Source of the DNA: Eledone cirrhosa
Taxonomy: Eukaryota
Direction of reading: 5' to 3'
Assembly: GCA_964016885.1 (NCBI GenBank)
Contig: OZ024757.1
Span: 8,432,001-8,496,000, forward strand
Length of the DNA stretch: 64,000 nucleotides
Part shown: positions 1,501-62,819 of the stretch, in pieces
Layout of the letters: every line of letters begins with the position of its first letter
How positions within the stretch are numbered: position 1 is the first letter of the stretch
Translations under genes and position numbers: made by a program
The notes under the pieces: model-generated
The model's database searches: none
What the model saw: the letters and a program-made list of their open reading frames with translations, nothing else
Told to the model about the DNA's origin: nothing

Positions 1501-3058
1501 GTATCATTGATTTGAACACAATAGTAGTGTATATGTAATATTTGTTACGGAAATTACTTCTATAGGGTTGAAACTCATTAATTTAAGGGTATTAGTAGAT
1601 TATATGCCACATTTAATGCAGAAATGACCTTCAGAAGACTACAATGCCTCAATTCGAAAGAAATAGTAGAGTATATGCTATATTTAATAAAGAAATGTCT
1701 TCTAAAGGAGTAAAATTAATATAATTTGAGGAAATAGTAGTATATACGCTATATTTAATACAGAAATGTCTTCTAAAGGACTTTTATTTAAAGGGTATTA
1801 GTAGATTATATTCTATACACAATACGGAAATGGCTTCTAAAGGACTAAAGCTCATTAATTTGAGGGAAATAGTAGTGTATGTGCAATATTTAATACAGAA
1901 ATGGCTTCTAAAGGAATAGAACTCTTCGATTCGAAGGAAATAGTATTTTATATGCAACATTTAATATAGAAATGGTTTCTAAAGGGCTAAATCTCATTAA
2001 TTTGAAGGAAATAGTACATTATATGCAATATTTAATAGAGAAATGGCTTCTACAGGACGAAAACTCATTAATTCAAAGGATATTAGTAGATTATATGCCA
2101 TATTTAATACAGAAATGGCTTCTAAAAGACTAGAACTCCTCAATTCAAAGGAAATAGTAGTATATATGCCATATTTAATACAGAAATGGCTGTCAAGAGA
2201 CTAGAACGAATATATTTGTATATGTGCAATATTTAATTCAGAAAAGTCTAGAAAAGGACTAGAAATTTTAATTCAAAGGAAATAGTACATTATATGCCAC
2301 ATTTAATATGGGAATGGCTTCTTGAGGACAAGAACTTTTAATTTGTAGTAAATAGTAGTATGAAAGCAATATTTAATACAGAAATGGCTTCTACAGGACT
2401 AAAACTTTTTAATTTGAAGAGTATTAATAGATTATATGCAATATTTAATTCATAAATAGCTTCTACAGTGCTACAACTCATTAATTTGTACAAAATAGTA
2501 GTGTATATGCAATATTTAATACAGAAATGGCTTCTACAAGGCTCAAACTCATTAATTTGAAGGGTATTACTAGATTTTATGCTATATTTAATACAGAAAT
2601 GGCCTCTAAATTACTAGAACTCTTCAATTCGAAGGAAATAGTAGATTATATGTCACATGTAATAAGGAAATTGCCTCTAAAGGAGTAAAGCTCATACTTA
2701 TGAGGGAAATAGTAGTATATGTGCAATATTTCCTTCAAATTAATGAGTTCTCGTCCTGTAGAATCTATTTACATATTAAATATTGCATATAATCTATTAA
2801 TATCCTTCAAATTAAAGAGTTCTAGTGCTTCAGAAGACATTACATATATACTACTATTTCTTGCAAATATATTAGTTCTAGTCTTTTGACAGCCATTTCT
2901 GTATTATATATTGCATATACTGTAATATTTCCTTAAAATTAAAGAGTTCTAGTGCTTTAGAAGCCATTTCTGTATTAAATATTGTGTATACTCTACTATT
3001 TCCTTCGAATTACTGGTTTCTAAGTCTTTGGAAGCTATTTCCGTATTAAATATTACAT
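1501..3058. repeat. 71-bp satellite block 1b with internal strand switch at ~2727
   Basis: Forward units run to ...gtgcaatatt (2730), then reverse-complement units (tccttcaaattaatgagttc...). Confidence 0.92.
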
Positions 3059-3060
3059 AT

Positions 3061-5545
3061 CATCATCATCACCGTTTTACGTCCGTTCTTCCACGCTAGC
3101 ATGGGTTAGACGGGTTGTCCTGTTGTGGGCAGTATCTGGTCGGCTGACCATGCCTTGCTCATACAGGAACTGATTTGGCTTGATTTCTACAGCTGGATGC
3201 CCTTCCTAACACCAACCTCATTTACAGTGTGGGCTGGGTGCTTTTTTGCCATGTCACCTCCACGACCACCTTGGGTGGGGGCATATTGTCTATGTGCTTC
3301 AGCTTGTACCCATGGGAGGTCGGGTACTCTGTATTACTGCGTGACGCCAGAAGTCACGGTCGTGTGTCATTGTCTTTGAGAGGTGTAATTGGGTAAGATC
3401 AGCTTTTATCACCTCATCCCAGGTCATCTTGGGTCTCCCCACTCCGCGGTTTCCATCAACTTCTAGTGCTCTGCACCTTTTTATGCAGCTGTCATCCTTC
3501 ATACGCATCACATGTCCATACCAGCGCAACTGCCTCTCCTGCACACAGCATTTGATTCCTCTTATGCTCAGTCTCTCTCTCAATTCATTTATGCTTTGTC
3601 GTTCACATATATTACTGTTACACATCCATCGGAGCATGCAGGCTTCGTTTCTCTCTAATCTACGTAAGTCTTCCACCTTCAGCGCCCAGGTCTCACTACC
3701 ATGAAACATCGCTGTTCGGATACACGCATCATACAGTCTGCCTTTCATTCTGAGGGAGAAGCCTTTTGCAGCTAGCAGTGGTAGTAGTTACCTAAACTTC
3801 TTCCATCCCATTCTTACCCTAGTTATTGTACTTTCTGAACACCCACCTCCGTTGCTAATTCAGTCACCTAGGTAGCAGAAGCTGTCTACTGTTTCTACAG
3901 GGCCCTCCCAGAGATTGGTGGTACTTGTTTCCTGTGGCTGTTTGCTGCTTGCTGTCTCAGCATAGCTGCTGCATGTGAATCCTACATTCTCAATTAAGCT
4001 TTCTGAGATCCCGCTACATCTCCATAGATTCAGCTATGAGTGCGAGGTCATCAGCATACAGGAGTTCCCATGGGCATCCGGTCTTAAACTCCTCTGTTAT
4101 TGCCTGCAGGACTATGATGAACAGGAGAGGGCTAAGAACAGAGCCCTGGTGGACCCCAACCTGTACACTAAATTCCTTGCTATACTCATTGCTAATCCTA
4201 ACTTTGCTGACTGCTCCCCTATACATGGCTTGTACCGCTTTCACAAGCCATTCATCTACTCCTAGTTTTCTAAGAGCCCACCAGATTACAGCACGTGGAA
4301 CTCTGTCAAAGGCTTTCTCAAGGTCGACAAATGCCAAGTAGAGTGGCTTACTTTTAGCTAGGTACTTTTCCTGTAATTGCCTCACAAGGAAGAGCACATC
4401 AGTGGTGCCTCTTCCTGGTACAAACCCAAATTGCATCTCGTCTATTTTCACCCGGTCCCTAATCAACTGTGCTATAACTCTTTCTGTGACTTTCATGACC
4501 TGGTCCATCAACTTTATACCTCTATAGTTTCCTCTATCTAGTGCATCGCCTTTACCTTTGTAGCAGTTGACAATGATGCTACTGCACCAATCTTTTGGTA
4601 TGGCCCCTTCTCGTATTACCTGGTTAACAATACGTGTGGTTATAGTGTGACCTACAGACCCAGATGCCTTCAGCATCTCGGCAGCTATACCCGATGGACC
4701 GGTTGCCTTCCCCATCTTCATATCTTTGATTGCCTTACTTACTACGCTGCTGCTGACTTGTACTGCTGGTCCCTCTATAGGGTCTACTTGGTGTAGGGTC
4801 TCTTCTTCCCATGCATTCTCCTCATTTAGTAATCTATCATAATGACTCTTCCATGCATCTTTCTTCTCAGCACTTGTGAGGGCAAGCTCACCTTTATCAT
4901 TCCGGATACACTTCTCTCCAATGACATCACAACTATCTCTGACACACTGCCTCGCAATCTTGAATACCTCCTGTTTCTGGTCCTCACGTTGTAAAACATG
5001 CTTGAATTTTCTATCCTCTGCTTCCCTCCTAGCTAAGTATACTTGTCACCTAGCTTCCCTCTTGGTCTCTATGTAATGTACCCTGCTCCCCCCGTTCTTC
5101 CATTCTTTCCATGCCTGTCTCTTGGCCTTAACTGCTTCATCTACCTTATTGTTCCACCACCAAGTCACTCTCCTCCTGCTTGTGGTCTTACTTACTCCAG
5201 CCACAGACCTCATCCGTCGCCTCTAGTAAATTATTTTTTAGGAACTCCCAGTTCTCTTCTACGTTAAATGTCTCTATCTGTTCTTCTTTACTGTCGTAGG
5301 CGTTGAGTAAAATATCTTTAAATCTGTTACTGGTTGAGGGGACTTTCAGCTTCCAGATCTTTCTTCTCCAGGTTGGCCTCCGTTTCCAGGTTCGTCTAGT
5401 TCTGACTGTGAGGTCGCTGACAACTAAGCTATGTTGGGATGTACATTCCTCACTAGGGAAGGCTTTTGTGTTTACGGCCGTCCATCTGTCACGTCCTCTG
5501 ATGAGGATAAAATCTAACTGACTAGAGTGCTCCCCTGATCTATAG
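3061..5545 (-). mobile_element. RTE-clade LINE, subfamily A, 5'-truncated with an internal deletion at ~4021
   Basis: RT motifs QFGF, FVDLEKAFDRV, GVHQGSVLSP and YADDL in ORF 4014-4721; C-terminal ORF 3299-3748; (TGA)n tail at 3061; very similar to 45771-48520. Confidence 0.96.
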
Positions 5546-6292
5546 TATATATATATACTTCTATTTCCTCCAAATATATTAGATGTCATCCTGTAGAAGT
5601 CGTTTCTGTATTAAACATTGCATATACACTACTATTCCCTTCGAATTAATGAGTTCTAGCCCTGTGGAAGCTATTTACATATTAAATATTGCATACATAC
5701 TACTATTTACTATGAATTAAAGAGTTATTGTCCTTAAGAAGCAATTTCCATATTAAATATGGCATATAATGTACTATTTCCTTCAAATTAAAAGTTCTAG
5801 TCATTTAGAAGCCATTTCTGTATTAAATATGGCATATATACTACTATTTCTCCTTTGAATCGCAGATTTCTAGTCCTTTAGAAGCCATTTCTGTATTAAA
5901 TATTGCATATAATGTACTATTTCCTTCGAATTAATGAGTTTAATCCTTTAGAAACCATTTCTATATTAAATGTTGCATATACTATACTATTTCCTTCAAA
6001 TCGAAGAGTTCCAGTCATTTACAAGCTTTTTCTGTATTAAATATTACACATATACTACTATTTACTCCAAATAAATTCATTCTAGTCCTTCAACGGCCAT
6101 TTCTGTATTAAATATTGCACATACACTACTATTTCCTTTGAATTATTGAGCTTTACTCCTTTAGAAGCCATTACATGTGGCATATAATCTACTATTTCCT
6201 TCAAATTGAAGAGTTCTAGTCCTTTAGAGGCCATTTCTGTATTAAATGTAGCATATAATCTACTAATACCTTTCAAATTAATGAGTTTCAGT
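5546..6292 (-). repeat. 71-bp satellite block 1c (reverse orientation)
   Basis: Continues the array interrupted by the LINE; same unit, reverse-complemented. Confidence 0.9.
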
Positions 6293-6317
6293 GACCTGGA
6301 ACTAGTAAAAAAAATTC

Positions 6318-6523
6318 TATTTAGGAAACCGAATGATTCTCGGCTTCAGAGTGTACGCGCCTGTATTTGCATACCCATGGCGGGTGTTTTCACGTATGCA
6401 TGTGTATGTATGTATATGGAGACGTGCAGCTATATATTTAATTTTTGTTGATTTCAATAACCTCTGTAATTTATTTACATTATCCTTAATTCTGAAGCCG
6501 AGAATCATTCGGTTTCCTAAATA
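6318..6523. repeat. Perfect 33-bp inverted repeat with a 140-bp spacer (MITE-like or fold-back)
   Basis: tatttaggaaaccgaatgattctcggcttcaga (6318-6350) and its exact reverse complement (6491-6523). Confidence 0.8.
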
Positions 6524-6910
6524 TAATTTTAGTCTATCACTTCAGTTATACCATAAACGTGGTTTTGTCTTTGCATGTAATTGTTTTCACTGCTCCAAAT
6601 AATGACGTATTATCTTCGTTTTTATCCGTTCTTTGCCAGGGAAAGTCTCCACAAACCAAAATATCGTCTTCCTGTCTTCCTTCTGTTGCAATGTTTTTCG
6701 AAATATTTACTTCTGCGTTCACAGATTGATTTTTTTAGTTTCAGAAGATCATGTTAAGGGTGAAAGCAGTTCTTCTTTGCCTAAACTTTAATCTGTTATT
6801 TTAATAAATATTTGCTCTACGGTTCTTATATATTTGATATATATTTATCCTTATCGAGCCCTCTTTGGATTTTAGTCTTCAAATTTATTATTATTACTAT
6901 ATATATATAT

Positions 6911-7490
6911 CATCATCATCATCAGGTCGAGGTTGCTCTCCTTTTTAGCTTTCAATAGCTGGATATACACTTGCAGTCTCTACTCCATACAAGTGAAAGC
7001 AGTACTCTGTGTTACAGCGGTTGTGCCTCACCGAAACATCCAAACAATAGTTGATATGATCGCCTTGCCACTAGTAGTATGAACCAAATTCACAGTTACT
7101 TGATCATTTCTTTATCTACTGATCCGACATCCTTCCTACCAATGTCGTCGTTTAACCCAGTCAAGATTGGTTTGACAGATTGCCTATCAAGGCCAAAGAG
7201 CTCTGTCCACCCTGGCTTTGAAATCAGAATGGTCCCTCTCCTAAACAGATTGCCGACCAAGGCTACCAAATATATACTATATACTCATTTACACTATTTT
7301 TGGATGGCCGTTGACTCTTATTAGTTCTTCCGCCCTTTGTCAGGTTTTGTTTTTGTCCTGCAGGATGTCCAAAATCACCCTCCTCACCAAGTAAACTTGA
7401 TGGGGTTGCCGGTTTAGTCGCCGACGACCCGACCATGTGAGAGGTTGTACTGGGTTACATGTTACCAGTAGCACTTGAGAGTGACCTGAC
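6911..7490 (-). mobile_element. Unclassified retroposon-like interspersed fragments flanked by (TA)n
   Basis: Starts with a (CAT)n tail next to a TA tract and ends at a TA tract; no recognisable ORF. Confidence 0.35.
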
Positions 7491-7530
<40 letters not shown>

Positions 7531-7818
7531 TTAATTTTGGTATGTTTATATACATTTTTTCTTCTAACTTTGATTTTATACCTAATTGTGTATGGTTGAC
7601 GATATATTTAATCGATTTCCACGTGCTGTTGGAAATGCTGGGTAAATATTCTATGGCTGTTTATCTATTATTTCTTCATAGGTGTCTTTTAATCTTATAG
7701 CCTGGTTTAATTGGTTTTTTGTGTGGTTAATTATGCTGATTGGGAGAGGAAATGGTGTATATATTTTATCAAATGTTTCTATGGACATACTTTATTATAT
7801 ATACATTTATATATTTTT

Positions 7819-8199
7819 GGAGGCACATGGCTTAGTGGTTAGAGCATTGGCCTTGCAATCGGTTGTGAGTTCAATTCTCAGACTTGATGTGTTGTTTCCT
7901 TGAGCAAGACACTTTATTTCACATTGCTCCAGTTTACTCAGCTGTAGAAATGAGATGATAGGAATGGCATCCCTATCATTCCACTGTAAAGTGGTCATGG
8001 AGATACCACGGCAAAACAGGGCACCCAGCCCACACTGTAAAGTGGACGTGTAGGTGCCACGGCAAAAAAGCACCCAGCACTCACTGTAAAAGAGGTTGGT
8101 GTTAGGAAGGGCATCCAGCTGTAGAAATCAAGCCAGAATCAGTTCCCGTCCCACCCTTGCAAGCAGGGAAAAGCGGACGTAAAATGATGATGATGATGA
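7819..8199 (+). mobile_element. tRNA-derived SINE with RTE-derived 3' tail
   Basis: A-box tggcttagtgg, B-box gttcaattc, then RTE 3'UTR motif gttaggaagggcatccagctgtagaaa and terminus cttgcaagcagggaaaagcggacgtaaaa(tga)n. Confidence 0.85.
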
Positions 8200-8289
8200 T
8201 TTATATTAAGTTTTTTTCGAGTTTTAGATAATCTGTGGTCGTGAGTTCAATTTTCACCTCGGATTTTAGGTTAAAATAATTTTAATGTT

Positions 8290-8620
8290 ATTTTTTTTTT
8301 GTTATTGCTTTAGTTGCTCAATCGACCAGGGCAATGCTGGGGCAACACTTCCAATATATTATTTTGTTAATATCGGCCCCAGTACATTAAAGGATTTCTA
8401 CTTTATATTAGTTTTACAATACTCAGTTTATGTTTATATTAAAGGGGAACATAAACATATTTTAGATTGTGGAGGGGCATGTAGCAGAAAAATTTGGGAA
8501 CAACTGATATATATATATATATATATGGTTGTGTGTATATATATATATATATATATACATAACATATATATACATATATAATCTATATATATATATATGC
8601 GTGTGTGTGTGTGCGCGCGC

Positions 8621-8665
<45 letters not shown>

Positions 8666-9170
8666 AACATGCACATATCCATAAATATATATATACGTGT
8701 GTGTCCTTTCTGCACCATGCCCCTCCTCAATCTAAAATATGTTTATGTGCCCCTTTAATATAAAAATAAACTCGAAAATATAAACAAACTTCTCGTAGGT
8801 GCTGCCAGATACACGATAACATGTGTAGACGAAGTGTAACTGGAAGTTGGGTCGTATTATATCACTTTAAAATTGGCCCCTATTATATTCAAATTAACAC
8901 CAGTGTGGCGTGCACCCCTCGTTGGGAATCCCTGATATATACATATTTACTGCTGTCCTGTAGAGGCACAACACAAACCGGACGTGGCAGCCATTAAAAA
9001 ACTTTGGCTTAAAATCAGTGAAAATATTTTAAACTAGAAAATTTAATGTAAACAAACCCGGAGGTTTTTGCCAAGAAAGATAACTCTTGTCTTACTTAAT
9101 CGCAAAAAATCGAGACAAAAATTTTGCGGGTCCTGGTTGTTGGTATTTGACTGTTATTTCTAGCATATAT
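8290..9170. repeat. Rearranged partial copy of the ~1.3-kb local repeat unit, including hAT-like MITE ends
   Basis: 8310-8505 matches 11560-11755 and 12895-13105; 8945-9165 matches 11315-11550. Short ends such as gttgggaatccctg and tttgggaacaactg resemble hAT TIRs. Confidence 0.75.
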
Positions 9171-9244
9171 GGACACTTTAGAAATAGCAGCGAAAACGGA
9201 ATGAGGGTACACACACCCACATATATATATATCTGTGTGTATAT

Positions 9245-9298
<54 letters not shown>

Positions 9299-9328
9299 AG
9301 ATCAAAAGATGGTTAAAAGAGTTCCATG

Positions 9329-9399
9329 TATTTTATTATGCGCATTTCAAAAACAAATATCATTACGCAATAACATTCGTGTTTTCATCAGATAAAATA
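9329..9399 (-). ncRNA. Minimal type I hammerhead ribozyme (left arm)
   Basis: Minus strand: TATTTTAT-CTGATGA-aaacacgaatgtta ttgcgtaa tgatatttgttttt-GAAA-TGCGCA-TA-ATAAAATA. Has an 8-bp stem I, the full core, a long stem II and a palindromic stem III. Confidence 0.82.
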
Positions 9400-9922
9400 G
9401 GAAGACATGATATGAAGGTTAAAGAACACTTGTGAATAGTGCAGTTTTAAATCAACATATGAAAAGTAGTTTTAGACTGATGTGTGATATTGGGAAAAAG
9501 TTTTTGAGGGCGGGGGTAGGTTGGAAAGGATGAAAAAGAGGAGGAGATGAGAGTAAAAAGTGGAGGGGGAGGAGTATAATGAGGAATGATGAGATAGGAG
9601 GAGAGATGGGTGGTAGAGAGAGAGAGATAGCTTTTATAACTGAGAAAAATATATTGTTTTACATAGAGAGGTTAAAAAACGGTTTTTAACCTCTCTATGT
9701 AAAATAATATATTTTTCTCAGTTATAAAAGCTATCTCTCCTCCTATCTCATCCTTCTTTATCATACTCCTCCCCTTCCATTCTTTACTCTCATCTCCTCC
9801 TCTTTTTCATCCTTTCCACCACCACCCCTCAATATCACACATCAATCTAAAACTACTTTTCATATGTTGATTTAAAACTGCACTATTCACAAGTGTTTGT
9901 TAACCTTCATATCATGTCTCCC

Positions 9923-9993
9923 TATTTTATCTGACGAAAACGCAAATGTCAACGCATGATGATATTTGTTTTTGAAATGCGCATAATAAAATA
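9923..9993 (+). ncRNA. Minimal type I hammerhead ribozyme (right arm)
   Basis: TATTTTAT-CTGACGA-aaacgcaaatgtca acgcatga tgatatttgttttt-GAAA-TGCGCA-TA-ATAAAATA; predicted cleavage after UA at ~9984. Confidence 0.82.
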
Positions 9994-10132
9994 CATGGAA
10001 CTCTTTTAACCATCTTTTGATCTTATATTATTTATACTCCAGTCCTACAAACTGTAGAGTGCTACTTATCCGATATCTGCATTGCTTTATTGTACTACAA
10101 TAAAACTCACCTCTTATATATATATATATATA

Positions 10133-10921
10133 TCATCATCATCATCATCATCATCATTTTACGTCCGCTTTTCCCTGCTTGCAAGGGTGGGATGGGTCTT
10201 ATTCAGCACAGCATCTCTCCACCCGTCACGGTCCCTCGTCATCTCCACCGTGAGCTTCAATGATCTGAGGTCTGTTCTCACCACCTCCGCCCATGTTTTT
10301 CGTGGTCGACCTCTACCACGTCTTCCTTCAACTGGCATTTCCTGGCACTTCTTCACCCATCGGTCATCCTCCATGCGCATCACATGTCCATACCACCTCA
10401 GTCTCCTCTCCCGTACACTACATTCTATCCCTCTCAGACACAGTTTCTCTCTCAACACATTTATGCTGGGTCGTTCACGCAGAGTTACACTGCACATCCA
10501 ACGGAGCATGCTTGCCTCATTTCTCTCCAGCCGTCGCATATCCTCTGCGGTTGCTGCCCATGTCTCACTACCATGCAACATCGCGCTCCTCACACAGGCA
10601 TCATACAACCGGCCTTTCGTACGCAGGGAGAAACCCTTCTTCGTCAACAGAGGAAGCAGCTCCCTAAACTTCTTCCAACCCGTCCTTATTCTAGATACTA
10701 TGGCCTCGGAACACCCTCCTCCCATGCTAATCTGATCTCCTAGGTACCGGAAGCTATCCACCACTTCTATAGCGCCCTCTCGCATTTGAAAAATGTGTCT
10801 ATCAGTGCGACTTCTACTGTCTAATTTCCCTGTACATCTACTGCATACATATTTCTCCCTACCTGTTAGTTTGCCTGCTATCCCGCTACATCTCTTGTGT
10901 ACCCAGGACCTGCATTGTGTG

Positions 10922-10926
<5 letters not shown>
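10133..10926 (-). mobile_element. RTE LINE subfamily B, 5'-truncated 3' fragment
   Basis: ORF 10159-10785 (VDSFRYLG...RRLRWYGHVMR...RGRPRKTW); (TGA)n tail; (TA)n on both sides. Confidence 0.95.
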
Positions 10927-10973
<47 letters not shown>

Positions 10974-11339
10974 TAGAATTCCGGAGAACAACCGAAAAAT
11001 GCTGAGTTTAAAGTTTAGTAAACAGCAGAAAGAAGGACATAAATAAATAAATATATATCAACATTTAAAATATGTTTATGTCCCCCTTTAATAAAAAAGA
11101 AATAGAACCTTGTAAAAGAGTGTTATTACTGTAATATAAAGTAGAGATCCTTTATTTAAACAAAGCTAAGATGCGGCGATGATCAAAACAAACGTATTAT
11201 ATAACTTTCAAATTGACCCCTATTATATTCAAATTAACCCCAGTGTGGCGTGCACCCCTCGTTGGGAATCCCTGATATATAAATATATGTGAGTGTGTTG
11301 CTATTTCTAGCAGGTTTACTGCTGTCCTGTAGAGGCACA

Positions 11340-11425
11340 ACACAAACCGGAAGTGGCAGCCATTAAAAAACTTTGGCTTAAAATCAGTGAAAATATTTTA
11401 AACTAGAAAATTTAAGGTAAACAAA
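11340..11425 (+). promoter_or_regulatory. Candidate promoter/first-exon module (ETS + YY1-like motifs, splice donor); copies at ~8970 and ~12675
   Basis: CCGGAAGTG immediately followed by GCAGCCATT, with AAG|GTAAAC about 60 bp downstream. Confidence 0.35.
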
Positions 11426-11842
11426 CCCGGGTGTTTTTGCCAAGAAAGATAACTCTTGTCTTACTTAATCGCAAAAATCGAGACAAAAGTTTTGCGGGTG
11501 TGCAGTTGATTTGGTCCTGGTTGTTGGTATTTGACTGCTATTTCTAGCATTTTATTATTTTAGTTGCTCATTCGACTAAGGCCATGCTGGGGCAACACTT
11601 CCAATATATTTTCTTGTTAATATCGGCCCCAGTACATTAAAGGATTTCTACTTTATATTAGTTTTTCAAGTCTCAGTTTGTGTTTATATTAAAGGGGAAC
11701 ATAAACATATTTTAGATTGAGGAGGAGCATGGTGCAAAAAAGGGTGGGCACCACTGATATCTATATATATAGCGAGAGAGAGAGAGAGAGGGAGAGAGAG
11801 CACCCAAACACACACACAAGTATATACACATGTGCCTGTCCT

Positions 11843-11877
<35 letters not shown>

Positions 11878-12331
11878 GTAATAATAATAAATTTCAAGAC
11901 TAAAATCCAAAGAAGGCTCCATAAGGATAAATATATATCAAATATATAAGAACCATAGAGCAAATATTTATTAGAAAATAACAGATTAAAGTTTAACCAA
12001 AGAATCAGAAGATCTCGTTAAGGGTGAAAGCAGCGATTCTTTGCTTAGACTTTAATCTGTTATTTTAATAAATATATATATATATAAATACACATATGTA
12101 TATATAACATCCAAACACACACACACGCATATATATACACACACGCACCTATATGTAATATAGGTGTGTGTGTGTGTGTATGTATGCACGTACACACACA
12201 CACAATTATATATATATATCAGGGATATACGCCCCACAGGGACCAATTTGTATATAATAGGGGCCAATTTGAAGCAGAAAAGGTTGGGGACCACTGAAGA
12301 CAACAAATCGTTCTTTTTATTTTATTACAAT

Positions 12332-12610
12332 TGAGTTCAAATCCCGCCAAGGTTAACTTTGCCTTTCATCCTTACGGGGTCGATATAATAAAGTACCAGT
12401 AATACACTGGGTAATTTGCTGGCCTTGTGCCAAAAGTAGAAACAATTATTATTATCATATATATATATATATATATAATTGTTTATACTTTAGGCACAAG
12501 GCCAGCAATCAACCAGTGCATTACTGGTACTTTATTATATCGATCCCGTAAGGATGAAAGGCAAAGTTAACCTTGGCGGGATTTGAACTCAGATCGTAAA
12601 GGGACGTAAC
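12332..12610. mobile_element. Two inverted Meta-domain-type SINE fragments around a TA tract
   Basis: gagttcaaatcccgcc...gcctttcatccttacggggtcgata..aaagtaccag on + (12332-12445) and on - (12480-12610). Same family at ~13450, 14560-14750, 15760, 53180-53490 and 56840-57330. Confidence 0.7.
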
Positions 12611-13105
12611 TATGTGAGTGTGTTGCTGAGATTTCTATTTCTAGCAGGTTTACTGCTGTCCTGTAGAGGCAAAACACAAACCGGAAGTGGCAGCCATTAA
12701 AAAACTTTGGCTTAAAATCAGTGAAAATATTTTAAACTAGAAAATTTAAGGTAAACAAACCCGGGTGTTTTTGCCAAGAAAGATAACTCTTGGCTTACTT
12801 AATCGCAAAAATCATGAGAAAAACTTTGCCGGTGTGCAGTTGTTTTGGTCCTGGTTGTTGGTATTTGACTGCTATTTCTAGCATTTTATTATTTTAGTTG
12901 TTCATTCGACTAAGGCCATGCTGGGGCAACACTTCCAATATATTATCTTGTTAATATCGGCCCCAGTACATTAAAGGATTTCTACTTTATTATTAGTAGG
13001 TATTACTAAGTATTACAAGTCTCAGTTTGTGTTTATATTAAAGGGGAACATAAACATATTTTAGATTGAGGAGGGGCATGGTGCAGAAAAGGTTGGGAAC
13101 TACTG

Positions 13106-13143
<38 letters not shown>

Positions 13144-13569
13144 CACCCAAACATGTATATACACATGTGCGTGTCCTACCTTATATATATATATATATAT
13201 ATAAACACACATATGTATATATAACATCCAAACACACACACACGCATATATGTACACACACGCACGTATATGTAATATAGGTGTGTGTGTGTGTGTGTAT
13301 GTATGCACGTACGCACACACACACACAATTATATATATATCAGGGATATACGCCCCACAGGGAGCAATTTGTATATAATAGGGGCCAATTGAAGCAGAAA
13401 ATGTTGGGGACCACTGAAAACAACAAATCGTTCTTTTTATTTTATTACAATTGAGTTCAAATCCCGCCGAGGTTAACTTTGCCTTTCATTTTTACGGGGT
13501 CGATAAAATAAGGTACCAGTAATACACTGGGTATTTGCTGGCCTTGTGCCAAAAGTAGAAACAATTATC

Positions 13570-13603
<34 letters not shown>

Positions 13604-13682
13604 CTATATTACATATAGGTGTGTGTGTGTATGGATGTTATATATACATATGTGTGTATATATATATATATACATCATCTCT

Positions 13683-14374
13683 ATCAAAATACACCCCCGT
13701 CCCACCACCTCCACCCCATCCACACCGCCCCTTTCAATGTAAAGTTATGTTGGTCCCACAACATCCAGGCCGAAACAAATGAGATCGTGTAGGTGTCACG
13801 ACAAAAAACACACAGTCCACGCTGTAAATCTGGCCGTGTAGGCAACACGGTAAAAACCTCCCAGCCCCACACTGTAAATGTTGTTGGTGTTAGGAAGGGC
13901 ATCCAGCTGTAGAAAACCCGCCAGACAGTCCACGCTGTAATGTGGCCGTGTAGGCAACACGGTAAAAACCTCCCAGCCCCACACTGTAAATGTGGTTGGT
14001 GTTAGGAAGGGCATCCAACTGTAGAAAACCCGCCAGACAGTCCACGCTGTAATGTGGCCGTGTAGGCAACACGGTAAAAACCTCCCAGCCCCACACTGTA
14101 AAAGTGGTTGGTATTAGGAAGGGCATCCAGCTGTAGAAAACCCGCCAGACAGTCCACGCTGTAATGTGGCCGTGTAGGCAACACGGTAAAAACCTCCCAG
14201 CCCCACACTGTAAATGTCGTTGGTGTTAGGAAGGGCATCCAACTGTAGAAAACCCGCCAGACAGTCCTATGCGAGCAAGACAACCACTCTTGCCTCAAGT
14301 GGGAAAAACCCCGTCCAAACCCATGCAAGCGTGGAACACGGACGCTAAACCTGATGATGATGATGATGATGATG

Positions 14375-14375
<1 letters not shown>
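13683..14375 (+). mobile_element. RTE subfamily C 3'UTR containing 4 tandem copies of a 112-bp segment
   Basis: taggaagggcatcc at 13891, 14003, 14115 and 14227; (TGA)n tail then (TA)n. Confidence 0.9.
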
Positions 14376-14440
<65 letters not shown>

Positions 14441-14837
14441 ATTAGTTAAGCAAAACAAGACCACAAATTTCACAAGGAAGACATTATTAAAAGAATGTCA
14501 ACATATTTTAGTTTGATGCAAGGAATGTAGAGAATAATAATAATAATATTAATAATAATTGTTTCTACTTTAGGCACAAGGCCAGCAATTATCCCAGTAC
14601 ATTACTGGTACTTTATTTTATCGACCCTGTAAGGATGAAAGGCAAAGTTAACCTCGGCGGGATTTGAACTCAGACTGTAAAGGGACGTAACTCTGTGCTA
14701 GAAGACATGGGGTCCAACCCTCTACCGATACTGCCAATCCACCGCCCTTTAATAATATTAATAATAATAATGTCTGTTTACAATTGTTTCGCTACTCCAT
14801 ATAATATTTCTGGACCAAATCATCATATATTATTATT

Positions 14838-15663
14838 GAGGCAGGTTGTATGATGCCTGCATACGAACAGCAAGGTTGCATGGCAGTGAGACCTGGGCAT
14901 TGTGTGCAGAGGATATACGCAGACTAGAGAGGAACCAAGCTTGCATGCTCCGCTGGATGTGTAACAGTAATATATGTGAACGACAAAGCATAAACGAACT
15001 AAGGAAAAAATTAGAAATAAGAGGGATCAGATGTTGTTTACTCGAGAGAAGGCTACGTTGGTATGGACACGTGATGCGCATGAAAGTCGATAGCTGTATA
15101 ACAAAGTGCAGGGCAATAAAGATAGACGGTAGCCACGGAATAGGCAGACCTAGAAAAACCTGGGACGAGCTGATAAACTCCGACCTCACACACTTACACC
15201 TCTCCAAGACAATGTCACTGGACCGAGACCTTTGGCGGTGCTCAGTAATAGAGAAGACCCGCCTTACCTAAATACACAGTAAAACCTACTACAGCCAGTA
15301 GGCATCTCTAACAAAATACACCCCGTCCCACCACCCCCCACCCCATCCACACCACCCCGTTCTATGTAAAGTTATGTTGGTGCCACAACATCCAGGCCGA
15401 AACAAATGAGATCGTGTAGGTGTCATGACAAAAAAACACACAGTCCACGCTGTAATGTGGCCGTGTAGGCAACACGGTAAAAACCTCCCAGTTCCACACT
15501 GTAAATGTGATTGGTGTTAGGAAGGGCATCCAACTGTAGAAAACCTGCCAGACAGTCCTATGCGAGCAAGACAATCACTCTTGCCTCAAGTGGGAATACG
15601 CCCGTCCAAACCCATGCAAGCGTGGAACACGGACGTTAAACGTTGATGATGATGATGATGATG
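14838..15663 (+). mobile_element. RTE subfamily C, 5'-truncated
   Basis: ORF 14846-15271 is the RTE C-terminus, followed by 3'UTR and (TGA)n tail. Confidence 0.93.
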
Positions 15664-15717
15664 ATTGATCTGGTTCAGTTGAAAATAATTAATTATTTTC
15701 AACTGAACCAGATCAAT
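15664..15717. repeat. Perfect 54-bp palindrome
   Basis: attgatctggttcagttgaaaataatt|aattattttcaactgaaccagatcaat. Confidence 0.9.
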
Positions 15718-16312: not shown

Positions 16313-16510
16313 TCATGATCATCATCATCATTCTACGTCTGCTTTTCCCTGCTTGCAAGGGTGGGCCTGGTCTTATTAAGCACAGCATCTCTCCACTTGT
16401 CACGGTCCTTCGTCATCACCGTGAGCTTCAACGATCTGAGGTCTGTTCTCACCACCTCCGCCCATGTTTTTCGCGGTCTACCTCTACCACGTCTTCCTTC
16501 AACTGGCATT
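16313..16510 (-). mobile_element. RTE subfamily B extreme 3' fragment
   Basis: Matches 10135-10340; (CAT)n next to (TA)n. Confidence 0.88.
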
Positions 16511-19500
16511 AATTCGAAGGAAATAGTACATTATATGCAATATTTAATACAGATATGGTTTCTAAAGGACTAGAAATCTCTGATTCAAAGGAGAAATAGT
16601 AGTATATATGCAATATTTAATACAGAAATAGCTTCTACAAGACTAAAACGCTTTAATTTGAAGAGTATTAGTAGATTATATGCAATATTTAATATATAAA
16701 TAGCTTCTACAGGGCTAGAACTCATTAATTGAAATCAAATGGTAGTGTATATGCAATATTTAATACAGACATGGCTTCTACGGGGCTGAAACTCTTTAAT
16801 TTGAAGGGTATTCATAGATTATATGCAATATTTAATAAAGAAATGGCTTCTAAGGGAATAAAACTAATGTAATTGGGGGAAATAGTAGTATATATGTCAT
16901 ATTTAATAAAGGAATGGCTTATAAAGCAGTAGAACTCTTTAATTTGAAGTGTATTAGTAGATTATATGCCATATTTAATACGGAAATGGCTTCTAAAGGA
17001 TTAAATCTCATTAATTCGAGGGAAATAGTAATGTATGTGCAATATTTAATACAGAAATGGCTTCTCAAGGACTAGAAATTTTAATTCAAATAAAATAGTA
17101 CATTATATGCGATATTAAATATGGAAATGGCTTCTTAAGGACAAGAACTCATTAATTCGTAGTAAATAGAAGTGTGTATGCAATATTTAATAAGTAAATA
17201 GCTTCCACAGGACTTGAACTCATTAATTCGAAGGGAATAGTAGTGTATATTCAATATTTAATACAGAAAAGTCTTCTACAGGATGACAACTAATATATTT
17301 GGAGGAAATAGAAGTATATATGTAATATTTAATACGGAAATAGCTTCCACAGAGCTAGAAACCAGTAATGCGAAGGAAATAGTAGAGTATACACAATATT
17401 TAATACAGAAATGGCTTCTAAAATACTAGAATTATTCAATTTGATGGAAATAGTAGAGTATATGCATTATTTAATAAAGAAATGGCTTCTAAAGAAGTAA
17501 AACTAATATAATTGGAGGAAATAGTAGTATATATGCCATATTTAATACAGAAATGGCTTCTAAAGCACTAGAACTCTTTAATTTTAGGGAAATAGTACAG
17601 TATATGCAATATATAATACAGAAATGGCTGTCAAAGGACTAGAACTAATATATTTGCAGGAAATAGTAGTATATATGTAATGTCTTCTGAAGCACTAGAA
17701 CTCTTTAATTTGAAGGATATTAATAGATTATATGCAATATTTAATACGTAAATAGATTCCACAGGGCTAGAACTCATTAATTTAAAGGAAATATTGCACA
17801 TACACTACTATTTCCCTCGAATTTATGAGCTTTACGCCTTTAGAGGCAATTTCCTTATTACATGTGACATATAATCTACTATTTCCTTCGTATTGAAGAG
17901 TTCTAGTATTTTAGAGACCACTTATGTATTAAATATAGCATAAAATCTAGTAATACCCTTCAAATTAATGAGTTTCAGCCCCGTAGAAGCCATTTCTGTA
18001 TTAAATATTGCATAGACACTACTATTTTGTTCAAATTAATGAGTTGTAGCACTGAAGAAGCTATTTATCTATTAAATATTGCATATAATCTATTAATACT
18101 CTTCAAATTAAAGAGTTTTAGTCCTGTAGAAGCCATTTCTGTATTAAATATTGCTTTCATACTACTATTTACAACAAATTAAAAAGTTCTTGTCCTTAAG
18201 AAGTCATTTCCATATAAAATATGGCATATAATGTACTATTTCCTTTGAATTAAAATTTCTAGTCCTTTTCTAGACTTTTCTGAATTAAATATTGCACATA
18301 TACAAATATATTCGTTCTAGTCACTTGACAGCCATTTCTGTATTAAATATGGCATATATACTACTATTTCCTTTGAATTGAGGACTTCTAGTCTTTTAGA
18401 AGCCATTTCTGTATTAAATATTGCATATAATGTACTATTTCCTTTGAATTGAGGAGTTTTCGTCCTGTAGAAGCCATTTCTCTATTAAATATTGCATATA
18501 ATGTACTATTTCCTTCAAATTAATGAGATTTAGCCCTTTAGAAACCATTTCTATATTAAATGTTGCATGTAAAATACTATTTCCTTTGAATCGAAGAGTT
18601 CTATTCCTTTAGAAGCCATTTCTGTATTAAATATTGCACATACAATACTATTTCCCTCAAATTAATGAGCTTTAGTCCTTTAGAAGCCATTTCCGTATTG
18701 AGTATAGAATATAATCTACCCTTTAAATGAAAGCATTCTAGTCCTTTAGAAGACATTTCTGTATTAAATATGGCGTATATACTATTATTTCCTCAAATTA
18801 TACTAATTTTACTCTTTTAGAAGCCATTTCTTATTAAATATAGCATATACTCTACTATTTCTTTCGAATTGAGGCGATGTAGTCTTCTGAAGGCCATTTC
18901 TGCATTAAATGTAGCATATAATCTACTAATACCCTTCAAATTAATGAGTTTCAGCCCTGTAAAAGCCATTTCTGTATTAAATATTGCATATACACTATAA
19001 TTTTGTTCAAATTAATGAGTTGTAGCACTGTAGAAGCTATTTATCTATTAAATATGGCATATAATCTATTAATAGTCTTCAAATTAAAGACTTTTAGTCC
19101 TGTAGAAGCCGTTTCTGTATTAAATATTGCATACATACTACTATTTACTACAAATTAAAGAGATCTTATTCTTAAGAAGCCATTTCCATATTAAATATGG
19201 CATATAATGTACTATTTCCTTTGAATTAAAAGTTCTAGTCATTTAGAAGCCATTTCTGCATTAAATATTGCGTATACTCTACTTTTTCCTTCAAATGTAT
19301 GGGTTCTAGCTCTGTTGAAGCTATTTTTCTATTAAATATTGCATATACTGTACTATTTCCTTTGAATCGAAGAGTTCTATTCTTTAGAAGCAATTTCTGT
19401 ATTGAATATTGCACATATATTATTATTTCCCTTGAATTAATGAGATTTAGTCCTTTAGAAGCCATTTCCATATTAAATATGGCATATAATCTACAAATAC

Positions 19501-21450
19501 CCTTCAACTTAATGACTTTTAGGCCTTTACAATGTATTAATGTATTAAATATTGCATATAATGTACTATTTCCTTAGAATTAGTGAGCTTTTGCCCTTTA
19601 GAAGCCATTTCTATATTAAATGTTGCATATAATCTACTAATATTCTTCAAATCAGTGAGTTTTAGTCCTGTAGAAGCCATTTCTTTATTAAGTATGGCAT
19701 ATATACTACTATTTTCTTCGAATTAATGAGCTTTACTCGTTTAGAGACCATTTCTGTATTATATCTGGCATATAATCTACTATTTCCTATAAATTGAAAG
19801 TTTCTAGTCTTTTAGAGGCAATTTCTGTATTAAATATAGCATATAATGTATTAATGCCCCTCATATTAATGAATTTCAGCCCTGAAGAAGTTATTTCTGT
19901 ATTAAATATTGCATATACACTACTATTTCCTTCGAATTAATGAGTTCTAGCCCTGTGGAATCTATTTACATATTAAATATTGCATAAAATCTATTAATAT
20001 GCTTCAAATTAAAGAGTTCTAGTGCTTCAGAAGCAATTTCTGTATTAAATATTACATATATACTACTAGTTACTACAAATATATTAGTTCTAGTCCTTTG
20101 ACAGTGATTTCTGTATTGAATATTGCATATACTGTACTATTTCCTTAAAATTAAAGAGGTCTAGTATTTTAGAGGCCATTTCTGTATTAAATATTGTGTA
20201 TACTCTACCATTTCCTTCAAAATACTGGTTTCTAGCTCTGCGGAAGCTATTTCTGTATTAAATATTACATATATACTTCTATTTCCTCCAAATATATTAG
20301 TTGTCATCCTGTAGAAGACGTTTCTGTATTAAATATACGATATATACTACTATTTGATTCAATTTAAAGAGTTCTAGTCCTTCAGAAGCCATTTCCGTAT
20401 TAAATATGGCATATAATCTAATAATACCCCTCATATTAATGAGTTTTAGTCCTGTAGAAGCCATTTCATTATTAAATATTCGATATACTCTACTATTTCC
20501 ATCGAATTAAAGAGATTTCTTCATTTAGAAGCCATTTCTGTATTAAATATGGCATATAATCTAACAATAACCCTCATATTAATGATTTTTAGTCTTGTAG
20601 AAGCCATTTCTGTAGTAAATATTGCATTTATACTACTATTTGATTCGAATTAAAGCGTTCTAGTCCTTTAAAAGCCATTTCTGTATTAAATATTGTATAT
20701 ACACTACTATTTCCATCGAATTAATGAGATCCCTCCATTTAGAAGCCATTTCTGTATTAAATATGGCACATATACTACCAATAACCCTCATATTAATTAG
20801 TTTTAGTCCTGTAGAAGCTATTTCTGTATTAAATATTGCATATACACTACTATTTCCATCGAATTAATGATATCCCTGAATTAAAAAGCCATTTCTGTAT
20901 TAAATATGTTATATAATCTACTAATACCCTCATATTAATGAGTTTTAGTCCTTTAGAAGGCATTTACGTATTAAATATAGGATATATACTACTATTTTAT
21001 TCAATTTAAAGAGTTCTAGTCCTTTAGAACCCATTTCTGTATTAAATATGGCATATACACTACTAATACCCCTTATATAAATGAGTTTTAGCTTTGTAGA
21101 AGACAGTTCTGTATTAAATATTGGATATACAGTATATTTCCATCGAATTAAAGAGATCTCTTCATTTAGAAGCAATTTGCGTATTAAATATGGCATATAT
21201 ACTACTAATACCCCTCATATTAATAACTTTTAGTCTTGTAGAAGGCATTTCTGTATTAAATATTGGATATACATTACTATTTCCATCGAATAAATTAGTT
21301 CTCTGCATTTAGAAGCAATTTACGTATTAAATATGGCATATAAACTACTAATACCCCTCATATTAATGAATTTAGTATTGTTGAAGCAATTTCTCTATTA
21401 AATATTGCATATATACGACTATTTCATTCTAATTAAAGAGTTCTAGTCCT
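16508..21450. repeat. 71-bp satellite block 2 (forward to ~17791, then reverse)
   Basis: Same unit as block 1; strand switch at ggaaatattgcac (~17791). Confidence 0.94.
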
Positions 21451-21454
21451 TATA

Positions 21455-30786: not shown

Positions 30787-32244
30787 TTAAGATTTCTCAT
30801 CTGCATGTATGAGTTTGTGAGTAGTTAGGCTACTTTCCTCAGAGAATGATATACCACAGATATCACAGTGATATGGCTTGTCTCCTGTATGGGTACGTAT
30901 GTGTCTAGTTAAGGTACTACTATCAGAGAATGATGTACCACAGATATCACAGTGGTATGGCTTGTCTCCTGTATGTATACGTTTGTGTTTAGTTAAGTGA
31001 CCACTTACAGAGAATGATTTACCACAGATATCACAGGGATAGGGTTTGTCTCCTGTATGGGTACGTATGTGTCGCATTAAGTTACTACTTTGAGAGAATG
31101 ATTTACCACAAATATCACAGTGATATGGCTTGTCTCCTGTATGTATACGTTTGTGGCTAGTTAAGCTACTACTATCAGAGAATGATTTACCACAGATATC
31201 ACAGTGATATGGCTTCTCTCCAGTATGTATACGTTTGTGTTTAGTTAAGTGACCACTTACAGAGAATGATTTACCACAGATATCACAGGGATAGGGTTTG
31301 TCTCCTGTATGGGTACGTATGTGTCGCATTAAGTGACTACTTTGAGAGAATGATTTACCACAGATATCACAGTGGTATGGCTTGTCTCCTGTATGTATAC
31401 GTTTGTGGCTAGTTAAGCTACTACTATCAGAGAATGATTTACCACAGATATCACAGTGATACGGCTTCTCTCCCGTATGTATACGTTTGTGTCTAGTTAA
31501 GGTACTAGTATCACAGAATGATTTACCACAGATATCACAGTGATATGGCTTCTCTCCAGTATGTATACGTTTGTGTTTAGTTAAGTGACCACTTACAGAG
31601 AATGATTTACCACAGATATCACAGGGATAGGGTTTGTCTCCTGTATGGGTACGTATGTGTCGCATTAAGTGACTACTTTGAGAGAATGATTTACCACAGA
31701 TATCACAGTGGTATGGGTTGTCTCCTGTATGTATACGTTTGTGGCTAGTTAAGCTACTACTATCAGAGAATGATTTACCACAGATATCACAGTGATACGG
31801 CTTCTCTCCCGTATGTATACGTTTGTGTCTAGTTAAGGTACTAGTATCACAGAATGATTTACCACAGATATCACAGTGATATGGCATGTCTCCTGTATGT
31901 ATACGTTTGTGTCTAGTTAAGGTTCCTCTATCAGAGAATGATTTACCACAGATATCACAGTGATACGGCTTGTCTCCTGTATGAGTACGTTTGTGTCTAG
32001 TTAAGGCATTACTTACAGAGAATGATTTACCACAGATTTCACAGTGGTATGGCTTCTCTCCTGTATGTATAAGTTTGTGTCTAGTTAAGGCATTACTTTC
32101 AGAGAATGATTTACCACAGATATCACAGTGATATGGCTTGTCTCCTGTATGGGTACGTTTGTGATTAGTTAAGTTATTACTTACAGAGAAAGATTTACCA
32201 CAGATATCACAGTGATAAGACATATCCCCTGTATGTATACACAT
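30787..32244 (-). CDS. Tandem C2H2 (Kruppel-type) zinc-finger protein, 17 fingers in the ORF
   Basis: 28-aa repeats CxxCGKSF...H...HTG(D/E)KPY. The frame stays open upstream to ~32563, so the true start is uncertain. Confidence 0.85.
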
Positions 32245-32983
32245 GTGTGTAGTTAAGGTACTACTTTTATTGAATGATTTACCACAGATATGACAGTGAT
32301 ATGTCCTCTGTCCTGTATGTATATGTTCATGTCTAGTTAAGTGAATACTTTGAGAGAATGATTTACCACAGATGTCACAGTGGTATAGCTTGTCTCCTGT
32401 ATGGGTACGTACGTGTTTAGTTAATGCATCACTTTGAGGGAATGTTTTACCACAGATCTCACAATGATATTGCTTGTCTTCTGTATTGGTACGATTGTGG
32501 GTAGTTAAGTTACTGCTTACAGAGAATGATTTACCACAGATATCACAATGATATGGCTTGTCTCATGTATGTATGCTTTTGTTACTAGCTAACGTACTAC
32601 TGTGAGAGAATGAATTACTACAGATATCACAGTGACATGGCTTGTCTCCTGTATGTGAGTAGTTAAGGTACTACATTTATTGAATGATTTACCACATATA
32701 TTGCAATGATATGGCTTCTTTTCTCCAACCTTTGTCATCTCACCAGGAATACTAAACATTTTCGATTGTGTTTCGCATTTAACTTTCCACTCCATTTATT
32801 TTCGATAATAATTTTATCTCCAACAGAATATACTTGTAATATTTTTTACATTATATTCCTAAAAAATATATCTTCTATATTTCCCTCAACTGTGATTTCA
32901 GTTAATAGTCTTCAAATGATGATAAATAGAGGTGATGTATCCAAGATTGAAAATAATAATTAATCCCAATGTCATCTGGTATT
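32245..32983 (-). pseudogene. 5' part of the same ZNF exon: N-terminus and ~6 more fingers with a frameshift (~32655) and TGA (~32565)
   Basis: MEWKVKCETQSKMFSIPGEMTKVGEKKPYHCNICGKSF from 32795; acceptor-like tttctttcttatttcag ends at 32984. Confidence 0.7.
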
Positions 32984-40541: not shown

Positions 40542-40606
<65 letters not shown>

Positions 40607-40672
40607 ACCCATGCTAGCGTGCAAAGTGGACGTTAAAGGAGGATGATGATGATATATATATGTATATATATA

Positions 40673-48700: not shown

Positions 48701-49460
48701 GATTAGGAAGTCCTTGTCGTCTGTTAGAGCAGTAGTGTGTATTAGGGACTCGTAAAACCTATCCTTAAGTTCGTCTGGCAGCCCCGATTGGGGTGCGTAA
48801 GCTGATATTATTGTGGTAATTGTCTTATTCAGGACTAGTCTGAGTTTAATGATTCTTGCATTTACCCTGTACACTGAGATTACTTTATCTACCCACTTGT
48901 CAGCTAATAGTATACCTACACCACCCATCCCATCGTCATTTCCCACCCAGAAAAATTTGTAGCACTGGCTTTTTCCTACAAGGACTCTAGCAGACCCTCC
49001 TCTCCATCTAGTCTCTTGCACACAGCATACATCAACTTCCTTTCGCTCTAGCATTTCTACGATTTCTCCTGCTCTTCCTTTCATTGAGCCTACATTGATG
49101 GTACCAACTCGGAGTTTTGGGCATTTGTCGACACTCGTAGGGGAGGGTCTCTGGGTTGGCGCTTCACGTGGGTGCTTGGTAGCTCGCAGATTCATATTTC
49201 ATCTATTGATTCAGAGTTGCTCAAATGTATTCTCAGCTCATTCATCCATAACGGTGGTGAAATTGAGGGCTAGAAGAACAGTGGTGGTGGGGTAATGGCA
49301 GGGTGTGTTGGGATGCGCCAGAGGAGGAGAGAGTTAGTTAGGCAGGTAGTAGCAGCAGCAGTGGAAATGGCATGCTAGGTTTGATTGGTCGAATAGACTA
49401 TGGTGGTGTGTGGGGGGAGGGGAGGGAACTTGTGAGGTAGGAACTGAGGGTCGCATGGTA
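45771..49460 (-). mobile_element. Near-full-length RTE LINE, subfamily A
   Basis: 5'UTR (boundary uncertain), APE + RT ORF, ~300-bp 3'UTR and (TGA)n tail into (TA)n. Confidence 0.95.
46077..49195 (-). pseudogene. RTE ORF: APE endonuclease + reverse transcriptase + PHD-type finger, single frameshift at ~47585
   Basis: APE motifs GTINVG, CVQETR, SAYAPQ, AGDFNGH, SQLDFIL and SQHSLV; RT YADDL. Here tggaccttc versus tggccccttc at 4601 shows a 1-bp loss; restoring it gives ~1039 aa. Confidence 0.93.
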
Positions 49461-59149: not shown

Positions 59150-61882
<2,733 letters not shown>

Positions 61883-62721: not shown

Positions 62722-62819
62722 AAGTTAGTCCATCATCAGTGATCTTCCAACCATCATTGGTATTTCATCGAGCGATGAAATACCAATGATGGTTGGAAGA
62801 TCACTGATAAAGGACTAAC

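Follow-up and report, generated by a model that had tools for sequence, protein, structure and literature searches.

The inverted repeat at 9290 to 10036 of the 64-kb window (the whole stretch of DNA that was analyzed) very probably consists of two head-to-head, 5'-truncated copies of a hammerhead-bearing element, laid down in a single insertion by the enzymes of a Penelope-like element (PLE), its GIY-YIG endonuclease and its reverse transcriptase. This type of origin, already proposed in a first-pass annotation of the same DNA, is in keeping with the tail on only one arm, the (TA)n flanks, the high repetition of the family with its depth biased to the 3' end, and another copy that folds back. 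The arrangement is already published, both as inverted PLE insertions and as hammerhead pairs on opposite strands, and as an object the palindrome is common debris of retroelements, of a sort described before; this copy is probably inert. Its value is that of a test case for two questions raised in the literature, how PLEs make inverted insertions and what PLE hammerheads do. On the first of these points, we see an even chance that the arms derive from two different RNA molecules whose cDNAs annealed at a short quasi-palindrome (9678 to 9684).

Architecture of the inverted repeat and its surroundings

Local alignment placed the arms at about 9290 to 9679 and 9683 to 10036 (332 matches, 22 substitutions, and 41 gap columns), with a spacer of only 3 nt (9680 to 9682) between them, and blastn of the two arms gave 84% over 385 columns (E value of 4e-125). 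The alignment and the short spacer bear out the near-spacerless inverted repeat of ca. 740 bp described in the first-pass annotation. The limits given there, 9290 to 10035, enclosed the palindrome but missed the 78-nt one-sided tail and the (TA)n tracts on both sides (Table 1). Within the 64-kb window, blastn found no third copy of the arm. A fold-back artefact of the assembly was rejected, since arms this divergent could not have arisen in that way.

Table 1 Features of the inverted repeat and its flanks (coordinates within the window)
Feature	Position	Strand	Basis or remark
(TA)n microsatellite, left target flank	9221..9298	.	Merges into left arm 3' end
Left arm: 5'-truncated pLTR-like copy, tail-less, 3' end outward	9290..9679	-	Arm alignment
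Type I hammerhead motif, core CUGAUGA...GAAA...UA, cleavage predicted after 9337	9329..9399	-	Subfamily 1 alleles in stem II
Junction: 7-nt quasi-palindrome (3+1+3) around spacer 9680-9682	9678..9684	.	
Right arm: 5'-truncated pLTR-like copy, two private deletions	9683..10036	+	Alignment and family copies
Self-complementary hexamer, fold-back centre of another copy (organism B)	9861..9866	+	X5, 1 contig
Type I hammerhead motif, core CUGACGA...GAAA...UA, predicted cut after A9985	9923..9993	+	Subfamily 2 alleles in stem II
One-sided 3' extension (tail), 78 nt	10037..10114	+	No left-arm counterpart
(TA)n microsatellite, right target flank	10115..10133	.	Then (CAT)n end of LINE

The outer boundary of the left arm is blurred by a TA run (9284 to 9298), and the right arm lacks two segments, of 21 nt and roughly 14 nt, that are present in the left arm and in other copies of the family. 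Each arm carries 5 to 10 private substitutions. The differences between the arms are unevenly spread: 9 of the 21 listed substitutions lie within 39 nt (9920 to 9958), which makes the 5' half of the ribozyme the stretch of the palindrome with the most divergence instead of the least, while the 64 nt from 9959 to 10022 are identical (P value for clustering of 2e-4, with statistics chosen after seeing the data). The tail contains three small predicted hairpins with a stability not above that of shuffles (z score of -1.34). An AATAAA on the plus strand (10100 to 10105) and a consensus 5' splice donor on the minus strand (10103 to 10114, at the end of the tail) may both be there by chance. Beyond the right (TA)n tract, an unrelated RTE-type LINE on the minus strand adjoins via its (CAT)n end and reaches to about 10923.

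Several other candidates were examined and rejected. An editing signature between the arms was discarded on the grounds that A/G-type differences numbered 8 on one strand and 9 on the other, miRNA precursor matches at the palindrome centre were all far below Rfam gathering scores, and a coding remnant was rejected because the palindrome contains no ORF. The local duplications around the insertion (8300 to 9170, 11190 to 11770, and 12650 to 13120; 200 to 360 bp, 84 to 90% identity, partly inverted) provided no empty site for comparison, as the duplicates diverge before the insertion point.

The window as a whole is animal DNA rich in RTE-type LINE remnants, C2H2 zinc-finger arrays and satellites. 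The LINE remnants comprise 46077 to 49198 (minus strand), in which the APE and RT frames are split by one frameshift and a PHD-like motif follows the RT, plus 14 other blocks. Zinc-finger arrays are found, all on the minus strand, at 30787 to 32562 (an open frame of 591 amino acids with about 21 fingers), 53991 to 54257, and 60400 to 61990 (broken over several frames). In protein searches, the zinc fingers were 32 to 61% identical to those of various animals, and the named matches of the RTE-type RT came from a cnidarian and amphioxus (51 to 59%). Blocks of a 71-bp AT-rich satellite occur in both orientations (1 to 2731, 2839 to 3060, 5475 to 6290, and 16507 to 21451) and form large inverted pairs, e.g., 2336 to 3060 with 17460 to 18184. 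Further inverted arrangements are a short repeat with two inverted copies around (TA)n, forming a long interrupted palindrome (12330 to 12590), a perfect spacerless palindrome with 27-bp arms adjoining an (ATG)n LINE tail (15664 to 15717), and a pair of LINE 3' tails that point towards each other from either side of (TA)n (40606 to 40722). An unrelated second element of similar outline lies at 62678 to 62822, where (TA)n, an AC-rich one-sided tail of about 44 nt, a palindrome (49-bp arms, 2-nt spacer) and (TA)n follow one another; one of its arms has CUGAUGA and the other CUGAUAA, and with no GAAA downstream, it is no hammerhead.

The repeat family in public contigs

Other copies were retrieved from public contigs of sequencing runs, of which 10 out of the 13 listed (none of them RNA, which says nothing about expression) contained part of the stretch and 2 contained at least half of its words. 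X1 may derive from the source of the window itself. Four of them (X1 and X4 from organism A, X5 from organism B, and X7 from organism D) were compared with 9681 to 10097 at 80% likeness, yielding 4,626, 403, 39 and 8 matching contig pieces, respectively. The family is therefore present in three organisms and highly repeated. In X1, the summed depth went from 0.03 to 0.14 million (9681 to 9834) up to 2.3 million (9989 to 10002), compared with 6 to 24 for the single pieces among those listed. Given that summed contig depth is no copy number and that short variable pieces drop out, we read no more into these values than that the family is very repetitive and biased to the 3' end.

The ends of these copies were read from the best 19 of 151 loose-end rows. 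Among the loose ends listed, (TA)n directly behind 10036, i.e., a copy without the tail, was found in X1 (35 contigs), X5 (1 contig) and X7 (1 contig), and a variant end behind 10018 was followed by TA in X1 (45 contigs), with 2 more contigs in X4. The tail (10037 to 10097) is common to other copies in all four runs, at a depth relative to that of 10003 to 10016 of 0.32 (X1), 0.61 (X5), 0.53 (X7) and 1.24 (X4); it thus appears optional in three of the four. At the other end, three X1 contigs had a loose end before 9683 with last letters that repeat 9678 to 9682 (by eye, among the loose ends listed). As these contigs continue upstream of 9683 and share 9678 to 9682, the centre of the palindrome would be the truncation point of a longer element, of which at most 16 nt beyond the centre are visible in the copies.

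A second fold-back was found in one X5 contig (depth of 5.2), in which 11 of 12 loose letters match the reverse complement of 9867 to 9878, next to a self-complementary hexamer (Table 1) near which the summed depth also steps up. This single contig could be a library artefact, as fold-back-shaped artefacts of this kind are on record (PMC3946424, as far as its accessible text goes). Among the joints listed for 9681 to 10097 in the four runs, none was labeled as a strand change and none led from the 3' end back to the 5' end. Exact-pattern scans found 0 stretches in metagenome contigs and 0 in viral contigs. PLEs are reported to be abundant in octopods in the accessible parts of PMC13282606 and PMC8967140, which is relevant only if the octopus-like look of the window reflects its host; the 3' motif of the ribozyme was absent from one supplement file each of PMC13282606 and PMC8557442, whose sequence libraries may lie elsewhere.

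Hammerhead motifs, predicted folding and variation

Scanning both strands of the whole window with our own descriptor gave exactly two hammerhead matches, one in each arm (Table 1), in agreement with the two type I cores of the first-pass annotation. The chance level was obtained by applying the same scan to 60 Markov-resampled windows: a stem I of at least 4 bp gave a mean of 0.12 matches (7 of 60 windows with a match), at least 6 bp a mean of 0.017 (1 of 60), and at least 8 bp none (0 of 60). The two matches, being copies of each other, amount to a single event. Both arms have the catalytic core, CUGANGA, GAAA and UH, in type I order. In the right arm, an 8-bp stem I (9923 to 9930 with 9986 to 9993), which can be extended by 3 to 4 bp (9919 to 9922 with 9997 to 10000) past a 3-nt bulge, encloses CUGACGA (9931 to 9937), stem II (9938 to 9973), GAAA (9974 to 9977), and an 8-nt palindrome (9977 to 9984) that corresponds to the palindromic stem III recognized previously. 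The cleavage site had been placed at about 9984, which is close, the exact predicted position being after A9985.

Two other details were correct in part. Stem II had been described as a helix of ca. 14 bp; it is long but not uninterrupted, consisting of 3 bp, a C-U mismatch at the fourth position, and then 10 bp (right) or 12 bp (left). The motifs had also been called intact, which holds for the sequence only. The opening pair of stem II is A-U and not G-C (A>G at 9938 accounts for 34% of the X1 depth, with no T>C at 9973), and the typical, non-universal G10.1-C11.1 pair and unpaired base after A9 are absent. The three stem II changes exclusive to the left arm are all pairing-neutral or in the loop. 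Rfam searches gave no hammerhead match (131 matches at an E value of ≤1 in 5000 to 15000 and 3 at an E value of ≤10 in 9915 to 10005); its models may not cover minimal hammerhead variants with a long stem II. Compared with shuffles, stem II alone was more stable (z scores of -2.68 [5/200] and -3.04 [2/200]), and the whole 79-nt motif was not (z scores of -0.75 [38/200] and -0.23 [74/200]).

We then consider how the motifs are predicted to fold, with a program that does not score the non-canonical hammerhead core. Stem I (probability of 0.95 to 0.97) and distal stem II (0.89 to 1.0) were predicted with high values, while the first three pairs of stem II reached 0.24 to 0.53 in monomers and 0.06 to 0.07 in dimers. 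Stem III was practically missing from monomers (0.001 to 0.002), and yet it formed between two molecules, as an 8-bp intermolecular helix, with a probability of 0.89 to 1.0 in the right-right and right-left dimers (a duplex of the 8-nt palindrome has -10.5 kcal/mol). These two dimers adopted a double-hammerhead fold (-43.1 and -41.1 kcal/mol, respectively), and the left-left dimer folded into another structure, i.e., two of the three pairings give the double hammerhead. The hammerheads are thus predicted to fold actively only as dimers via the palindromic stem III, as expected for the dimer-type minimal hammerhead suggested in the first-pass annotation. In the accessible text of PMC4209133, minimal PLE hammerheads are described as inactive monomers and weak dimers, and according to that of PMC11167929, the Poseidon ribozyme of the anole cleaved only when protein was present, and insertion in vitro did not depend on it.

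A read-through transcript of the locus had been expected to carry one self-cleaving motif whichever strand was transcribed. In the predicted fold of that RNA, however, none of the 71 ribozyme bases has a partner inside the ribozyme, and 64 (plus) or 68 (minus) of them are paired with the opposite arm, so that the motif is predicted to be buried in a duplex with its antisense. Since the antisense arm is transcribed first on either strand, read-through RNA is probably not self-cleaving, and cleavage at the locus seems unlikely unless transcription starts inside the palindrome. A role of such a transcript as an ADAR or small-RNA substrate is plausible by analogy with the Penelope repeats of a lizard, reported to be heavily edited, and palindromic repeats of a frog (PMC5625713, accessible text). 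If the host is a heavy RNA editor, spacerless palindromes like 9290 to 10036 would be ready-made double-stranded RNA.

Variation among the copies was evaluated from 40 of 56 variant rows. In X1, all rows of the kinds A>G, G>A, T>C, G>C, G>T, A>C and C>G at frequencies of at least 5% were visible, and none falls on a core base; 7 of the other 16 rows are from X1 and of kinds able to touch core bases. Transitions that keep pairing were found in X1 at 7 of 23 possible stem sites, versus 0 of 19 for those that break it (Fisher P value of 0.009). Adding a pair-breaking variant of X4 at 9987 (19%) to the comparison (1/19) weakens the P value to 0.044, and cruder tests on the shown rows alone gave 0.06 and 0.09. 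A third stem II variant, recognized by eye before 9966 among the loose ends listed for X4 and X5, is unchanged in the 8 proximal positions (the C-U mismatch among them) and differs in the distal stem. The listed variants spare the core and mostly keep stem pairing, and this pattern suggests that the hammerhead fold was probably under selection in the active lineage. The A>G excess on the sense strand could also stem from editing of the template instead of selection.

Origin of the two arms and relationship to known elements

Head-to-head inverted, 5'-truncated copies with a palindromic junction are present at the locus, as is an AT-rich or (TA)n target, with TA also at the loose ends behind 10018 and 10036 among those listed, and a dispersed family with 5' truncation is seen in the contigs (for which contig depth is a rough guide). 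For PLE insertions, the accessible text of PMC8557442 describes an inverted 5'-truncated copy, a tail on one end and (TA)n targets, and that of PMC3846280 describes head-to-head arms with palindromes at the junction. Against a PLE origin, no RT or GIY-YIG sequence was found in the window: a motif scan of all 360 frames of at least 55 amino acids was empty, and none of the 144 frames outside the masked portions (RTE, satellite, zinc-finger and low-complexity) matched an RT or GIY-YIG family in Pfam. Also at odds with it are the tail, longer than the 30 to 40 nt in print and crossed by no ATG frame from the ribozyme, its greater depth in X4, and the opening pair of stem II. In the mechanism that we envisage, the enzyme would nick both strands of the (TA)n target and reverse-transcribe from each nick, one cDNA starting at a distal site (with the tail) and the other at a proximal site (tail-less), and the two cDNAs would be joined by annealing at the quasi-palindrome, with the hammerheads as passengers from the parent RNA. 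As far as the accessible text of PMC11167929 goes, the anole element has both strands nicked and extended, its protein is predicted to be a dimer, and two reverse transcription starts delimit the tail in vitro. An enzyme that extends both nicked strands from two starts indicates that the chemistry needed for copying two templates exists.

Whether one template or two were copied can be approached through the alleles of the arms. Six of the 21 arm differences are at sites polymorphic in the family (31 to 67%), with the same allele as the family's alternative, and three of these six are CpG sites. The crude chance of such sharing is 0.012 when the three CpG sites are counted and 0.004 when they are left out, both values being post hoc and unphased. 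The alleles 9950T and 9953T have equal depths in X1, X4 and X5, which suggests, from unphased depth, that they travel together, and one X7 piece combines them with 9942A and 9935T, the state of the left arm, the right arm having the other state. The published interpretation of palindromic junctions, that of Arkhipova et al. (PMC3846280, accessible text), is self-priming by snap-back on a single template, after which identical arms would have diverged by mutation, CpG decay and ectopic gene conversion. We regard this as a close rival here, somewhat less likely than two templates. A near-zero spacer follows from it automatically, the very large family offers many donors for conversion, and the 9 differences within 39 nt beside the identical 9959 to 10022 resemble a conversion tract, which the clustering P value (2e-4) fits equally well. 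On the other hand, snap-back hairpins at both known centres are unfavorable (+1.9 and +2.5 kcal/mol, with terminal-pair probabilities of 0.0025 and 0.0085, although a protein could stabilize them), while intermolecular duplexes there are favorable (-2.4 and -4.4 kcal/mol). Self-priming also demands that the second arm stop repeatedly at 10036, a position that is simpler as a start site, and the left-arm-only stem II changes, all neutral to pairing or in the loop, look as if inherited from a selected template. Self-complementary motifs are common in the arm (6 hexamers and 7 heptamers). Together, the subfamily alleles and the 7-nt quasi-palindrome fit two RNAs somewhat better than self-priming. 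A broader version, in which inverted Penelope insertions in general would have two RNAs, each copied from one nick, and the stem III palindrome of the hammerhead would be the dimerization signal uniting the templates in a single particle, is unlikely in our judgment. If true, palindromes with arms of different subfamilies would document heterodimers in the genome, and pairing would be as much a reason for the hammerhead's retention as cleavage. We found no statement of a two-RNA model in the literature within reach (most subscription papers, figures and several supplements lay outside it). A large family with subfamily alleles inside the ribozyme permits a computational count of arms from different templates.

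The nature of the parent element is a separate question. It comes close to an even chance that the copies belong to a non-autonomous short element, as the first-pass annotation had it (a solo-pLTR or retrozyme monomer lineage), borrowing PLE enzymes and possibly fed by tandem arrays elsewhere that yield circular RNAs; this would be compatible with the PLE-mediated insertion proposed here. No ATG-initiated frame runs from the ribozyme through the tail, the listed variants keep an in-frame stop (10007 to 10009), the depth has a strong 3' bias, and retrozyme monomers are dispersed PLE derivatives (bioRxiv 10.64898/2026.07.22.740005, accessible text). However, the window contains no tandem direct copy and no 3'-to-5' joint was among those listed, and the retrozyme-like character assigned in the first-pass annotation fails at the locus for lack of tandem direct units with a hammerhead each. 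Besides, with only 16 nt visible upstream, an autonomous parent could have its ORF further on or after an intron. The long inverted repeat, the TA flanks and the high repetition would also suit a foldback or MITE-like DNA transposon inserted into TA sites as a whole palindrome, with hammerheads captured by chance, and a master copy whose arms differ could produce the near 50:50 depths seen in X1 at 9950 and 9953. We consider this very improbable, given that the termini are not symmetric and fixed, the tail being one-sided, that another copy has a different centre, that the parent continues upstream of 9683, that depth varies more than 20-fold along the arm, and that the allele shares are 62 to 65% in X4 and 81% in X5. 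The least probable reading, to which we give hardly any credence, is that the host retains the locus for a functional hairpin RNA, be it a substrate of editing, a source of small RNAs or a regulated ribozyme. A read-through transcript would indeed form a duplex of about -525 kcal/mol, and the edited lizard and frog repeats (PMC5625713) are a precedent, but the private substitutions of both arms and the two deletions of the right arm are what neutral decay would produce, and the locus sits among LINE debris and satellites.

The systems described in the accessible texts of the sources cited compare with the locus as follows. Animal non-LTR retrozymes (PMC7229834; bioRxiv 10.64898/2026.07.22.740005) are likewise non-coding, AT-rich units of a few hundred bases, related to PLEs and with a type I hammerhead of weak stem III, but they are tandem direct repeats giving circular RNAs (see also PMC6765202), whereas the locus is an inverted pair with a tail. 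The minimal PLE hammerheads of PMC4209133 share the type I topology, long helix II, small palindromic helix III and strong variation among copies. They differ in having a helix I of 4 to 5 bp (8 bp plus a possible extension here), a helix II shorter than that of the locus (13 to 15 bp with a C-U mismatch), and a conserved G10.1-C11.1 pair with an unpaired base between 9 and 10.1, in place of which we find A-U or G-U. In Schistosoma mansoni, such hammerheads occur on opposite strands 100 to 700 bp apart (Cervera and de la Pena 2014, PMC4209133), a range that includes the distance of about 520 bp found here. The Poseidon element of Anolis carolinensis (Frangieh et al. 2024, PMC11167929) has the same AT-rich target, two 3' ends one tail apart and a hammerhead shortly upstream of the ends, but its ORF starts in stem II and contains the tail, whereas no ATG frame crosses them here, and the stem III palindrome of the locus has no counterpart in the description of its ribozyme. 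Endonuclease-bearing PLE insertions (Penelope/Poseidon, Neptune, Nematis, and Hydra; PMC8557442 and PMC3846280) differ from the locus in that no ORF is seen here, in the length of the one-sided tail (78 nt versus 30 to 40 nt in print), and in the arm alleles of different subfamilies, which are absent from the discussion in the accessible parts of both papers. They have in common with it the head-to-head 5'-truncated copies, the palindrome at the junction, the extension of one end only, the (TA)n target and the hammerhead in the terminal repeat.
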